Origin: Hyphomicrobiales bacterium
GTDB taxonomy: Bacteria > Pseudomonadota > Alphaproteobacteria > Rhizobiales > Phreatobacteraceae
NCBI GenBank assembly: GCA_017304475.1
Contig: JAFKKV010000015.1
Span: 229,428-253,427 of the forward strand
DNA length: 24,000 nt
Reading direction: 5' to 3'
Of this stretch, positions 22,248 through 23,918 are shown piece by piece; the first letter of the stretch is position 1, and the number at the start of each line of letters is the position of its first letter. Under the pieces are notes generated by a model. It was not told the origin of the DNA. It did not search any database and saw only the letters and a list, made by a program, of their open reading frames with translations. Both the position numbers and the translations under genes were made by a program.

Positions 22248-23918
22248 TCAGCGCCCGGTATCCACCCCGGCCGTGCTCCGGCGAAACTCGCGTGGAGTCT
22301 GGCCGACCACGCGCCGAAAACTCTTCTCGAAATGGCTGAGGTCGGTGAAGCCGACGCTCATCGCCACATCGGTGATCTGCCGGCGCGTCTGGGCGGCGAG
22401 GATCTCCTTGGCCTTGTGGATGCGGATGCGGCCGAGCAGCGTCTTGAACTGGATGTCCAGGGCGCTGCGGAACAGGAAGCTCAGATGCGACGGGCTGACA
22501 TGGGCCTGGCGGGCCAGCTGGTCGAGCGAAATCGGCTCGGCGAAATGCTCGCCGAGATAGAGCAGGGCCTTGCGCAATGCGTCGTGCAGCCGCGCCAGTT
22601 CCGCGGCGTCCTTGTTGAGCGCGCAATGGACCCAGCGGTCCAGGCCGCCCGCCGGCGCATAGTCGAACGGCCGGGCAGGCGGCTCCTGCAGGCCCGCGGA
22701 CTTGGCCGGCCGCGCCCGGGCCGGCGCGGCCGCGGCGATCCACGGCGTATGGCGCATGATGTCGTCGCGCTCGATCGGCCGGCCGTCGGTCATCACGGCC
22801 AGCCGCGCCACCACCCTTTCGAGCTCGAACAGGTTTTCCGGCCACGCATAGGCGCGGCAGGCCGCGAGCAGGGCATCGCTGCGCTTGTCGGCGGCCGAGA
22901 AGCCGCGTCGCTCGAAGGCGGCGGCCACCAGCGCCTCCATATCCTCCGGGCGATCGCGCAGGGGCGGGGCGGCGATCGACAGGAAGTCGAGCTCGGCCAG
23001 CAGGGCCTGCGAGAAGCGGCCGTCGCGCACGCGCTCGCGCAGGTCGGCGGTGCTGGCGGCGATGACGCGCACGTCGGGCGCGTCCGCATCGGCCAGCCAC
23101 TGGCCGAGCGACGAGCGCATGGCCTGCGGCAAGCGCCGCTGCAGGGCCGGCGGCAGCTCGTCGACGCCGCTGAGGAACACCGTGCCACCGGCGGCCTTTT
23201 CGAACCATTCGACCGGCGTGCCGGCCGGTTCGGCGCAATTGACCTCGACAAAAGGCTGGTCGCGCCGGGCGCCGCCATAATGGATCATGGCCGCCAGCTG
23301 CGGCTTCTCGGTGCCGAACTCTCCGGTCAGCAGGACCGGCAGATCGGTACGCGCGGCGCGCTCCAGCTGGCTCTCGAGGTCCTGCAGCACACGGCCCATG
23401 CCGACCAGCCGCATCGGGGCACCGAGCCGCCTGGTGGCCCAGACCTCGACCTCGTAGCGCATGATCAGGAAGGCGAGCTGTCGGGCGAAACCGGCGAGCC
23501 AGGGCTGGGGCGGCCCCTTGGCATCCGCCGCATTGCGTCCGATCAGCCGCAGCTCGCCGATCGGCGTGTCGGCATAGGCCAGCGGCAGGACGCGTCCCGT
23601 CTTCGGCGGGGCGGAGCGGGCGGCGAATTTCGGCACGGCGGGGCGCTCGACGCCGAACCATTCCGCAGCATGGACGGCGTCGTCGACCGAGCGGGTCCGC
23701 GGCCCGGTGCCGGCGGCAGCGCCGCCGCCGCGCGGCCGGATGCTCCATTCGGAGACGATTGCGCGGCCCTCCCGCCGGACGTCGAGCGCGCCGCCCTCGC
23801 GCAGCACCACCGACGCGCCGATCAGGCCGGCGCGCTCGGTGAGTGCGCGCATCACGCTCTCGAGCAGGTCAGGCAAGGTCCGAAAGGATCTGTTGACGCC
23901 AAGGAACAGGTCATTCAC
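22248..23918 (-). CDS. transcriptional regulator: N-terminal sensor region + degenerate sigma-54-type AAA+ module + C-terminal AraC/XylS HTH
   Basis: The central region is collinear with the NtrC-type sigma-54 interaction domain (PVLLTGEFGTEKPQLAAMIH....PFVEVNCAE...GGTVFLSGVDELPPALQRRL...VRVIAAST.DL...V..GRF...L...L....I..PPLRDRPEDMEAL......Y.WPENLFELERVV). The C-terminal roughly 100 aa (LYLGEHFAEPISLDQLARQAHVSPSHLSFLFR...ITDVAMSVGFTDLSHFEKSFRRVVGQTPREFRR) form a typical AraC double HTH. GTG start at 23918; an internal ATG at codon 23 is an alternative. Confidence 0.85.
   Translation of the reverse strand: MNDLFLGVNRSFRTLPDLLESVMRALTERAGLIGASVVLREGGALDVRREGRAIVSEWSIRPRGGGAAAGTGPRTRSVDDAVHAAEWFGVERPAVPKFAARSAPPKTGRVLPLAYADTPIGELRLIGRNAADAKGPPQPWLAGFARQLAFLIMRYEVEVWATRRLGAPMRLVGMGRVLQDLESQLERAARTDLPVLLTGEFGTEKPQLAAMIHYGGARRDQPFVEVNCAEPAGTPVEWFEKAAGGTVFLSGVDELPPALQRRLPQAMRSSLGQWLADADAPDVRVIAASTADLRERVRDGRFSQALLAELDFLSIAAPPLRDRPEDMEALVAAAFERRGFSAADKRSDALLAACRAYAWPENLFELERVVARLAVMTDGRPIERDDIMRHTPWIAAAAPARARPAKSAGLQEPPARPFDYAPAGGLDRWVHCALNKDAAELARLHDALRKALLYLGEHFAEPISLDQLARQAHVSPSHLSFLFRSALDIQFKTLLGRIRIHKAKEILAAQTRRQITDVAMSVGFTDLSHFEKSFRRVVGQTPREFRRSTAGVDTGR

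Follow-up and report, generated by a model that had tools for sequence, protein, structure and literature searches.

The window (the whole 24,000-nt stretch of DNA that was analyzed) carries a presumed reb operon and, convergent with it, a gene encoding a regulator (Table 1). Four small genes in front of a 1221-aa open reading frame (ORF) encode RebB paralogues, as judged from Pfam matches to PF11747 (E 1e-30 to 2e-13). They are followed by HP1.4, HP1.3, HP1.2, and HP1.1, with sizes and an order that agree with the published description of Group 1 reb clusters (PMC3583457). The two genes at the operon end match nothing in Pfam or NCBIfam, and homologues of the larger one are present only in a subset of reb loci. 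The stop of the 1221-aa ORF lies 84 nt from the end of the regulator gene, the distance and convergent arrangement given in a preliminary description of this DNA that had rested on the letters and their ORFs.

Table 1. Features of the regulator gene, the reb operon, and its upstream region (positions within the window; the regulator is read from the minus strand).
Feature	Position	Strand	Basis
Regulator gene, 556 aa, GTG start	22248-23918	(-)	ORF and Pfam domains
N-terminal domain, residues 1-165, alpha/beta fold, weakly GAF-like	23424-23918	(-)	AlphaFold models
AAA+ alpha/beta subdomain, residues 172-320, sigma-54-activator type	22959-23405	(-)	Pfam, PDB, Foldseek
AAA+ lid subdomain, residues 321-390	22749-22958	(-)	PF25601 AAA_lid_14, E 1e-7
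AraC/XylS double helix-turn-helix, residues about 445-547	22278-22586	(-)	Pfam, PDB matches
Degenerate Walker A, GEFGTEKP (canonical GESGTGKE)	23301-23324	(-)	Translation, FleQ and PspF alignments
Site of 20-24-residue deletion, L1/GAFTGA loop, residues 229-238 (...AEPAGTPVEW...)	23205-23234	(-)	FleQ and PspF alignments
Degenerate Walker B, FLSGVDE (canonical FLDEIGE), both acidic residues gone	23157-23177	(-)	Translation, FleQ and PspF alignments
Arginine-finger region, FSQALLAEL (canonical FREDLYYRL)	22989-23015	(-)	Translation, FleQ and PspF alignments
Sensor II region, PENLFELE (canonical PGNVRELE), Arg to Phe	22818-22841	(-)	Translation, FleQ and PspF alignments
Four RebB paralogue genes, presumed regulated operon	14190-14474, 14551-14820, 14907-15173, 15241-15504	(+)	PF11747
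HP1.4, 78 aa, Raymann Group 1 accessory gene	15599-15835	(+)	Weak RebB match
HP1.3, 207 aa, Raymann Group 1 accessory gene	15832-16455	(+)	Weak RebB match
HP1.2, 116 aa, Raymann Group 1 accessory gene	16500-16850	(+)	Size and order
HP1.1, 366 aa, Raymann Group 1 accessory gene, cluster marker	16891-17991	(+)	Size and order
132-aa gene, operon end	17991-18389	(+)	Called gene on contigs L081/L082
1221-aa gene, operon end, convergent with regulator	18498-22163	(+)	Called gene on contigs L081/L082
Candidate operator, bipartite TATTTTCAGCGTCCACGCCAATCT, abuts -35 position	14054-14077	(+)	EM motif, PWM
Putative -10 hexamer TAGGGT (TAnnnT), 20 nt after box B	14096-14101	(+)	Conserved spacing
Weaker second site copy, 21 bp upstream of the proximal one, tentative	14033-14056	(+)	PWM
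Distal motif-like cluster, about 175 bp upstream, tentative operator	13879-13921	(+)	PWM and tandem repeat

We confirmed that the regulator ORF is a real gene. Its product begins with a weakly GAF-like domain, continues with an NtrC-type AAA+ core, and ends in an AraC/XylS double helix-turn-helix (HTH). Gene calls on two independent public contigs give an identical 556-aa product, and homologues align with it from residue 1 onward. Outside a disordered insert (residues 64-105), the N-terminal domain is modeled by AlphaFold with a pLDDT of about 90. A Pfam search with this domain gave no match and its best Foldseek matches are GAF domains (E 0.06-0.7, TM about 0.45), so that the models hint only weakly at a GAF assignment. 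In many gammaproteobacterial homologues this domain is short or missing, and matches begin near residue 110.

The central domain had been described as collinear with NtrC-family activators, and this is borne out by alignments to FleQ and PspF and by Pfam, in which residues 172-320 match Sigma54_activ_2 (PF14532, E 1e-23) and Sigma54_activat (PF00158, E 1e-21). Sequence matches in the PDB include FleQ, NtrC1, VpsR, ZraR, and PspF. The AlphaFold model of the regulator (pLDDT 81.6) confirms, at the level of a predicted structure, the AAA+ fold of the core, which Foldseek pairs with the AAA+ domains of FleQ, FlrC, and PspF (E 1e-14, TM 0.7).

Also as first described, an AraC-type HTH takes the place of the Fis-type HTH. 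The C-terminus scores well above the Pfam cut-offs for HTH_18 (PF12833, residues 468-547; E 5e-22, 78.3 bits against 33.6) and HTH_AraC (PF00165; E 2.5e-16, 59.8 bits against 26.6), and it matches the DNA-binding domains of AraC, Rob, SoxS, and GadX in the PDB. Neither the Fis-type HTH_8 nor a cNMP-binding-like domain with a Crp-type HTH was matched by Pfam anywhere in the regulator. Among 67 homologues, both helices that would read the DNA (VSxSHLSxLF and DLSHFEKxF) show at least 97% invariance, which fits a conserved DNA target.

The preliminary description held that the catalytic hallmarks of the core are altered and allowed that intact Walker motifs might have been misaligned. Two independent alignments, to FleQ and PspF, agree on the losses. 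Opposite the altered motifs of the regulator, FleQ and PspF respectively have GESGTGKE and GERGTGKE (Walker A), FLDEIG and FLDELA (Walker B), FREDLYYRL and FRADLLDRL (arginine finger), and NVREL and NIREL (sensor II). In the regulator the P-loop glycine before the lysine is a glutamate (E204), the arginine-finger and sensor II arginines are both missing, and a gap of 20-24 residues relative to both proteins falls where the GAFTGA loop would be.

These alterations are themselves conserved. Among 121 homologues GEFGTEK is nearly invariant (E204 in 121/121, F201 in 117/121), as are NLFEL and the arginine-finger region, with the consensus FS[R/Q]xLLAEL, while W238, beside the deletion, is invariant. 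Neither a Walker B DE pair nor a GAFTGA-like string occurs in any true family member (145 cluster representatives), the motifs are still degenerate in 67 regulators with identities down to 27%, and the ORF is undamaged in hundreds of genomes. This pattern indicates that the altered motifs are under selection, and hence that the core is a maintained pseudo-ATPase, with no sign of decay.

We therefore regard as scarcely credible that the protein is a conventional sigma-54-dependent enhancer-binding protein with misaligned motifs or a decaying pseudogene: its best database matches are NtrC, NifA, and FleQ, but both alignments place the motif losses and the GAFTGA deletion alike, the ORF is unbroken, its altered residues scarcely vary across the family, and no conserved sigma-54 promoter lies upstream of reb. 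As the preliminary description had reported, no TGGCAC-N5-TTGC element with 0-1 mismatch lies upstream of reb in the window. The lone sigma-54-like match there (13993-14007) has two mismatches and is palindromic, and matches with two mismatches occur in the window at chance level (20 observed, 25 expected). In 26 reb upstream regions, sigma-54 promoter patterns were likewise at chance level and none was conserved; neither analysis pointed to a promoter of the -24/-12 type (GG-N10-GC). With the GAFTGA loop gone and promoter patterns at chance level, sigma-54 dependence was rejected; as far as sequence analysis allows, the reading as a conventional enhancer-binding protein or pseudogene is already refuted.

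Loss of the catalytic motifs leaves room for ligand binding. The Walker A lysine is retained in 109 of 121 homologues (about 90% of the close ones) and two distant family members retain GxxxxGK, so the core may still accommodate a nucleotide or a different anionic ligand. One alternative is that the AAA+ core is a ligand sensor – for ATP/ADP without hydrolysis, for c-di-GMP as in FleQ and VpsR, or for another anionic molecule – that controls oligomerization and activity. FleQ and VpsR bind c-di-GMP on their AAA+ domains and are the closest structural and sequence relatives of the core, and the very strong conservation of the remodeled pocket, together with the kept lysine, suggests a retained binding function. 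Against this, the Arg and Asn of ARN in GESGTGKEVVARNLHY of FleQ, which follow Walker A and which we take to be its c-di-GMP contacts, align with AAM in the regulator. This change, the glutamate in the P-loop, and the lost Mg2+-binding aspartate of Walker B together speak against canonical nucleotide binding. We consider a ligand-sensing core unlikely and infer that the core probably binds no nucleotide.

The preliminary description had asked whether this architecture follows reb loci. RebB genes lie within 10 kb in 59 of the 79 genome loci that we retrieved via the regulator. Such linked loci come from Alpha-, Beta-, and Gammaproteobacteria, and also from Acidobacteria, SAR324, and a metagenome-assembled genome of Phycisphaeraceae. 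About ten more distant homologues (gammaproteobacterial and other) have no reb genes within 10 kb. Among 72,556 plasmids, HP1.1 is present in 9 records and the regulator in 9 records, and these are the same 9. The set of RebB paralogues with HP1.4-HP1.1 is co-conserved in at least 40 loci, and the accessory genes are all co-conserved with the regulator.

For the reverse test, metagenome loci were chosen via HP1.1. The regulator was present in six of six Reb-positive loci with full flanks, as well as on 7 shorter contigs, and was absent from all six long loci that carried an HP1.1-like gene but no Reb. HP1.1 is thus not a pure proxy for reb clusters: where HP1.1-like genes occur without Reb genes, the regulator is missing too. 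No other regulator is conserved across reb loci; a TetR gene lying upstream in the window (12701-13396) was rejected for this role, as other loci do not keep it. The regulator family therefore tracks Group 1 reb clusters in a tight two-way co-occurrence, answering the earlier question in the affirmative for Group 1.

For Group 1 reb clusters, a survey published in 2013 gave no regulator (PMC3583457). Described regulators of R-body genes are RebR, a Crp/Fnr family protein encoded at the reb cluster of Azorhizobium (PMC5527310), and RcgA with the sigma factor FecI2 in Pseudomonas aeruginosa PA14 (PMC8322103). Like the regulator studied here, they are encoded in or beside their reb cluster; they differ in belonging to unrelated protein families and to clusters with Raymann 'Group 2' synteny. 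The AAA+-AraC family probably fills the Group 1 gap, and its comparative record suggests that it is probably the missing dedicated regulator of these clusters.

Upstream of the first reb gene we identified a conserved bipartite site, TTTCCGTCAnTTnnGCCAATC. A motif built by expectation maximization (EM) from 26 non-redundant reb upstream regions reached a log-likelihood of 265.5, against 203.5 +/- 3.7 in shuffles, and describes an element of about 20 bp with the consensus TCCGTC for box A and GCCAAT for box B. The candidate operator is the best position weight matrix (PWM) match in the window, at 19.7 bits leave-one-out; its box A (TTCAGC) is weak and fits the consensus poorly, and its box B holds CCAAT at 14071-14075. 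In leave-one-out scans the same site ranked first in 20 of 22 loci.

Box B stands at a fixed distance from a putative -10 hexamer. In 17 of 22 loci the arrangement matches CCAAT-N20-TAnnnT exactly, and in 2 more the spacing is 21 nt, whereas TAnnnT is expected by chance at a frequency of 0.0065 per position. The predicted transcription start is near 14108. We detected no recognizable -35 hexamer and no sigma-70 consensus promoter upstream of reb.

Further candidate sites were weaker. The second copy next to the proximal site scores 10.6 bits (7.3 bits leave-one-out), and a general tandem half-site 21 bp upstream, in the manner of AraC I1/I2, was rejected, since such copies, at -20/-21, are found only in the window and in loci L024 and L049. 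The distal cluster combines TGGTTCCGTCGATTCCGCCGAATG with a 17-nt tandem repeat, CGATTCCGCCGA(A/G)T(G/C)CG, and scores 13.0 bits, under the best shuffle score of 16.8. Other PWM matches in the window, some of them inside the 1221-aa ORF, reach at most 17.8 bits, close to that shuffle score, and were set aside; none lies in a promoter context.

In Gammaproteobacteria, 15 loci that had been left out of motif construction also have the composite element ahead of the gene for the regulator itself. Two of these (L051 and L069) have no reb genes in the vicinity, so that the element goes with the regulator and not with reb. Among the other loci, alphaproteobacterial and betaproteobacterial, no copy lies upstream of the regulator. 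Autoregulation through this element was accordingly rejected for the lineage of the window, where the 502-nt region upstream of the regulator (contig L081) holds no copy (best score 5.4 bits). From these patterns we infer that the regulator recognizes the bipartite element.

Recognition of the element by a different factor, for instance a global regulator of the host or an alternative sigma factor, appears highly improbable; the AAA+-AraC protein would then have its effect at another place or step, perhaps on genes beyond the cluster. Box B (GCCAAT/GCCGAT) loosely resembles what we take to be the sigma-28 -10 consensus, but reading it as a -10 element leaves the strictly spaced TAnnnT 20 nt downstream unexplained. 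Moreover, no second regulator is conserved across loci, and the element accompanies the regulator even where reb is absent.

The same protein and site could also serve repression, for which a position overlapping -35 would be equally suitable. Occupancy of the -35 region would then silence the R-body genes, which are costly and may be lethal, until a signal releases the protein. The candidate site does abut or overlap -35, and R-body expression elsewhere is tightly controlled – repressed by PraR in Azorhizobium (PMC5527310) and confined to a small subpopulation, 0.26% of cells, in P. aeruginosa (PMC8322103). The lack of a recognizable -35 hexamer and of a sigma-70 consensus promoter, however, is typical of activator-dependent promoters, and the element at the regulator's own gammaproteobacterial promoter fits positive feedback, though negative autoregulation would fit as well. 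It also weighs against repression that, in the AraC/XylS family, a site abutting -35 mostly belongs to an activator. On balance we consider a repressor unlikely, and the effect of the regulator on reb would be activation.

Taken together, we think it reasonably likely that Group 1 reb clusters have their dedicated regulator in this three-domain pseudo-ATPase family, which would act as an ATP-independent, sigma-70 class II activator of the reb promoter. The AraC domain would read the bipartite site abutting -35, exactly 20 nt upstream of the TAnnnT -10 element, and, at a promoter without a usable -35 hexamer, the bound protein would recruit sigma-70 RNA polymerase. The AAA+ core, with neither a sigma-54 contact loop nor catalytic residues, would not remodel polymerase and may instead serve as a scaffold for oligomerization and for relaying signals between the N-terminal domain and the HTH. 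The co-occurrence and the AraC-style site at a fixed distance from -10 thus lend strong comparative support to the earlier proposal of a locus-specific, sigma-54-independent reb regulator.

Two groups of known transcription factors come nearest to the regulator. TyrR, Rhodobacter capsulatus NtrC, HupR, Brucella NtrX, Vibrio cholerae VpsR, and FleQ (at pel/psl promoters) also carry an NtrC-type AAA+ core lacking a working GAFTGA loop. Their cores act at sigma-70 promoters without engaging sigma-54, as that of the regulator would, and are used as an oligomerization or ligand-responsive module; FleQ, NtrX, and VpsR rank high among the sequence and structure matches of the regulator. All of these proteins have a canonical Walker A and a Fis-type HTH at the C-terminus, and most of them bind ATP or c-di-GMP. 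The regulator, by contrast, has a degenerate Walker A, Walker B, arginine finger, and sensor II, and ends in an AraC double HTH. That C-terminal double HTH, above Pfam thresholds, is what it shares with the class II activators AraC, XylS, RhaS, and MarA/SoxS/Rob, and the candidate site is similar to theirs: about 20 bp, two boxes about one helical turn apart, abutting -35. Their HTH is usually partnered by a cupin or periplasmic-binding-protein-like sensor, whereas here the partner is a degenerate AAA+ core with a GAF-like domain.

The family is small, comprising 233 clusters at 50% identity (E <= 1e-30), against 61,220 clusters at E <= 1e-10. One homologue, on plasmid p3 of Azospirillum brasilense Sp7 (WP_035680642.1), is automatically annotated only as 'AraC family transcriptional regulator'; its gene adjoins the reb genes and is convergent on the operon. 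Another, from Vibrio coralliilyticus RE22 (AXN33750.1), shares the family and the place beside reb genes and appears as an 'AtoC' domain entry in a table (PMC7457808). The entries for these two proteins say nothing of a pseudo-ATPase or of a link to reb, and our literature search found no description of the AAA+-AraC architecture or of a regulator for Group 1 reb clusters. The AAA+-AraC pseudo-ATPase is an unstudied kind of transcription factor, in a small uncharacterized family.

R-bodies are pH-triggered protein 'harpoons' with which Caedibacter, Azorhizobium, and P. aeruginosa are implicated in killing eukaryotic cells, and reb clusters are common in plant- and animal-associated bacteria, including Stenotrophomonas, Xanthomonas, Burkholderia, Azospirillum, and Vibrio. 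A bolder and distinctly unlikely extension of the activator model is that a ring or dimer of the pseudo-ATPase is a decision device for lethal differentiation, in which an intracellular cue – a small molecule, or a protein such as Reb or one of the accessory products – would be sensed via the remodeled nucleotide pocket or the GAF-like domain. In Gammaproteobacteria, where the regulator's promoter has the same candidate operator, positive feedback would form a bistable switch that commits only a subpopulation to R-bodies. If true, this would be a new ATP-independent signaling use of the enhancer-binding-protein fold, with the AraC domain providing the link to sigma-70.

Group 1 clusters are more widespread than Group 2 clusters, to which the known regulators (RebR; RcgA with FecI2) are confined. 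The analysis supplies Group 1 with a specific candidate regulator, a predicted operator, and a predicted transcription start, which would offer a direct route to inducing or silencing R-body production in many species. The family would also illustrate clearly how the AAA+ core of an enhancer-binding protein can be conserved in a catalytically dead form and rewired to a different DNA-binding domain and sigma factor, and is thus relevant to the origin of pseudo-enzymes in transcription control.

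The preliminary description had proposed that a sigma-54-type AAA+ core, collinear with those of NtrC-family activators, is fused to an AraC/XylS double helix-turn-helix in a candidate regulator of the reb (R-body) genes. Pfam matches agree with this architecture (see table) – as do sub-threshold NCBIfam matches to NtrC, NifA, RtcR, NorR and others along the core and to AraC in the tail. Two independent public contigs (runs SRR13325153 and SRR13325157) carry a called gene for the identical product, and its closest named relative is a Phreatobacter stygius protein (87% identity). 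An AlphaFold model of the regulator (pLDDT 81.6) superposes on the AAA+ domains of FleQ, FlrC, PspF and NtrX (Foldseek E ~1e-14, TM ~0.7 on target).

Features of the reb locus and of its regulator
Feature	Position	Strand	Description
TetR-family gene	12701-13396	+	TetR_N and TetR_C_29; directly upstream of the reb promoter region
Inverted repeat	13443-13479 / 13562-13598		37-nt arms
Distal operator-like sequence and tandem repeat	13879-13921		Tentative
Palindrome	13993-14009		GGGCAA-N5-TTGCCC
Weaker element copy	14033		Tentative
Proposed operator	14054-14077	+	Motif match; CCAAT at 14071-14075
Putative -10 hexamer	14096-14101	+	TAGGGT
Small genes	14190-15504		RebB (Pfam)
HP1.3	15832-16455	+	RebB-like, Pro-rich linker
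132-aa Ala/Glu-rich gene	17991-18389	+	Between HP1.1 and the 1221-aa gene; called on contigs L081 and L082
1221-aa ORF	18498-22163	+	Between HP1.1 and the regulator
Regulator ORF	22248-23918	-	GTG start, 556 aa
Sigma54_activ_2	Regulator residues 172-320		Pfam, E 1e-23
Sigma54_activat	Regulator core		Pfam, E 1e-21
AAA_lid_14	Regulator residues 321-390		Pfam, E 1e-7
HTH_18	Regulator residues 468-547		Pfam, E 5e-22
HTH_AraC	Regulator C-terminal part		Pfam, E 2.5e-16
Walker A			GEFGTEKP; canonical GESGTGKE / GERGTGKE (FleQ and PspF alignments)
Walker B			FLSGVD; canonical FLDEIG / FLDELA (same alignments)
Arginine-finger segment			FSQALLAEL; canonical FREDLYYRL / FRADLLDRL (same alignments)
Sensor II			NLFEL; canonical NVREL / NIREL (same alignments)

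We aligned the regulator with deposited FleQ chains (HMMER) and with PspF (BLASTP), the FleQ alignment being independent of the PspF sequence used. Both alignments bear out the described loss of the Walker A, Walker B and arginine-finger motifs, and both place a 20-24-residue gap precisely at the L1 loop that carries GAFTGA; the motif strings are reproduced by translation of their window coordinates. The regulator belongs to the AraC/XylS family by its DNA-binding domain but lacks four defining features of the sigma-54 activator family that we tested, and it is therefore functionally outside that family.

The altered residues are themselves conserved, which together with the agreement of the two alignments argues against intact Walker motifs having been misaligned. 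An indexed protein search returned 336 relatives, and Pfam architecture is identical in all of the best 120. In an alignment of these 120 with the query (121 sequences), G199 E200 F201 G202 T203 E204 is near-invariant, as are FS[R/Q]xLLAEL and N-L-F-E-L; E204 and W238, the latter inside the shortened L1 region, occur in 121/121 and K205 in 109/121. The altered motifs are likewise kept in 67 regulators from genome loci, down to ~27% identity, and in 145 representatives of 50%-identity clusters, among which no family member has a Walker B DE or anything resembling a GAFTGA loop, and GxxxxGK is retained by just two true members. The one outlier, P0236 (1027 aa), has all motifs intact and is a genuine enhancer-binding protein. 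An exhaustive HMMER search yielded 233 clusters at E<=1e-30 versus 61,220 at E<=1e-10, so the family is small and distinct within a huge pool sharing generic AAA+ or AraC domains. Sequence conservation thus points to a conserved pseudo-ATPase rather than to decay.

The core has lost the acidic pair of Walker B along with the arginine finger and the arginine of sensor II, and it carries Glu in place of a P-loop glycine; it is predicted to be unable to hydrolyse ATP or to contact sigma-54. A main rival to an inert AAA+ pocket is one that binds a ligand, given that K205 and the pocket are conserved and that c-di-GMP is bound by the nearest relatives, FleQ and VpsR; in the FleQ alignment, however, the c-di-GMP contact residues ARN of FleQ are AAM in the regulator. 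In the model, the N-terminal domain adopts an alpha/beta fold that includes a disordered insert; the domain's sole structural matches, to GAF domains, are weak. It is a candidate sensor, and is shortened or absent in many gammaproteobacterial family members.

The window's reb cluster comprises four RebB paralogues followed by HP1.4 (78 aa), HP1.3 (207 aa), HP1.2 (116 aa) and HP1.1 (366 aa) – the 'Group 1' type of Raymann et al. 2013, who noted candidate regulators for Group 2 clusters only, namely an ECF-type sigma factor and a cyclic-nucleotide-binding-type regulator (PMC3583457). Group 2 regulators later characterised are FecI2 with RcgA in P. aeruginosa (PMC8322103) and RebR in Azorhizobium (PMC5527310), all unrelated to the window's regulator. 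As first described, the regulator gene converges on the reb-associated operon, 84 nt from the end of the 1221-aa ORF.

This association extends well beyond the window. Scanning the family alignment against one genome per species gave 79 loci, of which 59 have Reb genes within 10 kb of the regulator (profile search; tblastn). Taxa represented include Caulobacter, Brevundimonas, Azospirillum, Novosphingobium, Methylibium, Roseateles, Ideonella, many Stenotrophomonas, Xanthomonas, Nevskia, Arenicella, Pseudoalteromonas, Marinomonas, Photobacterium, Vibrio, an Acidobacteriaceae MAG, a Phycisphaeraceae MAG and SAR324. Among the 20 Reb-negative loci, several are very short or are contigs ending inside the cluster (L004, L012, L065), others are non-family partial-domain matches (L068, L070, L072, L076, L078, L079), and about 10 hold more distant, mostly gammaproteobacterial homologues without nearby reb genes.

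In the opposite direction, tblastn searches of 72,556 plasmid records found HP1.1 in nine and the regulator (E<=1e-40) in the identical nine – seven Azospirillum, Ralstonia syzygii and Eleftheria terrae – at a distance of 1-7 kb. On A. brasilense Sp7 plasmid p3, the regulator is labelled only 'AraC family transcriptional regulator' and converges on the reb operon as in the window. Among 55 metagenome loci picked via HP1.1, the regulator is present in 6/6 with Reb genes and full 10-kb flanks, on seven shorter Reb-positive or cluster-edge contigs, and in 0/6 long loci with an HP1.1-like gene and no Reb genes. Four such long-flanked loci (L123, L126, L104, L112) carry an HP1.1-like gene at ~39% identity, so that HP1.1, at odds with the 2013 survey, is not strictly limited to reb clusters.

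Regulator position varies by lineage: the gene may stand downstream, either convergent (as in the window) or co-directional, or upstream, where it is either divergent or immediately adjacent and co-directional. A link persisting despite such rearrangement is what a functional association would predict. A TetR-type repressor of R-body production is reported for Azorhizobium (cited in PMC13430693); at other Group 1 loci, however, the window's TetR-family gene is not conserved. Together with the two-way tests, this leaves the pseudo-ATPase-AraC protein as the sole regulator travelling with Group 1 clusters, and synteny indicates that its family is their partner across several phyla.

The 1221-aa product is without a Pfam or NCBIfam match, and its homologues occupy the corresponding position in just some of the reb loci (Azospirillum, L011, L014, L028, L049, L062), the one in L049 having its own copy of the promoter element described below. 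It is a candidate accessory or effector protein; a hypothetical protein of 1187 aa is listed for a V. coralliilyticus reb island (PMC7457808). The 132-aa product also lacks a family match and contains the repeat HAEAIAERAVH twice. HP1.3 has an internally duplicated segment of ~40 residues (AAFAEG.AAIG.LQAEAKG.GANATQAQADLAQLAKDAA, twice).

Expectation-maximisation over 26 non-redundant loci, taking from each the 300 nt that precede its first reb gene, identified a single motif, TCCGTCAnTTnnGCCAAT, extending to TTTCCGTCAnTTnnGCCAATC, with a log-likelihood of 265.5 versus 203.5 +/- 3.7 (maximum 211.8) for 12 shuffled sets. Leave-one-out scanning ranked this site first in the 400-nt region of 20/22 loci, mostly at 15-26 bits. 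The element lies 80-180 nt upstream of the reb start codon and consists of two boxes, TCCGTC (box A) and CCAAT (box B), ~12 bp apart – the geometry expected for one AraC-family double helix-turn-helix. In the 67 regulators the two helices that read DNA, VSxSHLSxLF and DLSHFEKxF, show at least 97% invariance, as would suit a conserved operator; some of this pattern is shared by AraC proteins in general.

TAnnnT occurs exactly 20 nt downstream of box B in 17/22 loci and at 21 nt in two more, against a background of 0.0065 per position. No TTGACA-like -35 is present at the expected position (17-nt spacer, overlapping box B by ~3 bp), and a consensus scan found no sigma-70 promoter. In the window, the predicted transcription start (~14108) would leave an untranslated leader of ~80 nt before the ATG at 14190. 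Repression by the regulator at this same site is a main rival to activation; activator-dependent promoters usually show this combination of a missing -35 hexamer and a class II site. Sigma-54-type patterns are at chance level in the window and across the 26 reb upstream regions, in line with the earlier failure to find such a promoter upstream of rebB.

Several further sequences lie near this promoter. The weaker element copy is 21 bp upstream of the proposed operator, and ~175 bp upstream of the proximal site an operator-like sequence (13 bits) is followed by a 17-nt tandem repeat (CGATTCCGCCGAATGCG / CGATTCCGCCGAGTCCG); by analogy with AraC O2-I1, this distal cluster might allow looping or cooperative binding. 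The palindrome, ~60 bp upstream of the operator, was rejected as a sigma-54 -24/-12 element (two mismatches on both strands, not conserved elsewhere, chance frequency) and may be bound by a different dimeric factor. The inverted repeat that separates the TetR gene from the reb promoter (97% complementary, arms 82 nt apart, core unique within the window) may represent a MITE-like element or a large hairpin.

We scanned all loci for the composite of motif (PWM >= 10 bits) and TAnnnT at +20/21, and the reb promoter is picked up at practically all of them. In 15 loci from gammaproteobacteria, none used for the motif, a copy also lies 260-450 nt before the start of the regulator homology match; in L047 it is ~100 nt upstream of the regulator start codon. 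Two of the 15, L051 and L069, have a regulator without nearby reb genes, so the element follows the regulator even without them. That another factor reads the element is a main rival; an element following the regulator is as expected if the regulator binds it and autoregulates. The composite is absent from the full 502-nt region upstream of the regulator in the window's lineage (from contig L081). The L051 and L069 family members (Pseudoalteromonas ardens and P. rubra, ~9612-11300; no reb within 10 kb) may reflect either loss of the reb cluster or re-deployment of the regulator; by eye, ORFs downstream in L051 resemble an outer-membrane protein, a solute-binding protein and a transporter.

Two-way synteny and the conserved promoter element support the proposed role as a locus-specific, sigma-54-independent reb regulator. 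Most likely, its AraC domain would bind the bipartite site and the bound regulator would activate sigma-70 RNA polymerase at a promoter without a -35 hexamer; the AAA+ core, predicted to lack sigma-54 contact and ATP hydrolysis, would be kept for oligomerisation and signal relay. The analysis demonstrates the domain architecture, the state of the motifs, the synteny and the promoter element; from these we infer that the protein binds the element, in which direction it regulates and that it binds no ligand. Such working would resemble that of the sigma-70-dependent enhancer-binding-protein offshoots TyrR, R. capsulatus NtrC, HupR, NtrX, VpsR and FleQ (at pel/psl promoters), and of class II AraC/XylS activators.

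Full-text literature searches turned up neither this architecture nor any regulator of Group 1 reb clusters, and AraC goes unmentioned in a 2026 phylogenetic survey of Reb proteins. The sole trace of the family found is in a genomics paper on Vibrio coralliilyticus (PMC7457808), where a table lists beside reb, uncommented, an 'AraC transcriptional reg.' of 403 aa with a domain match to 'AtoC'. The regulator is not a new category of regulator; what appears to be new is a small, conserved pseudo-ATPase-AraC family, a variation on known kinds of regulator, together with its predicted operator and promoter.
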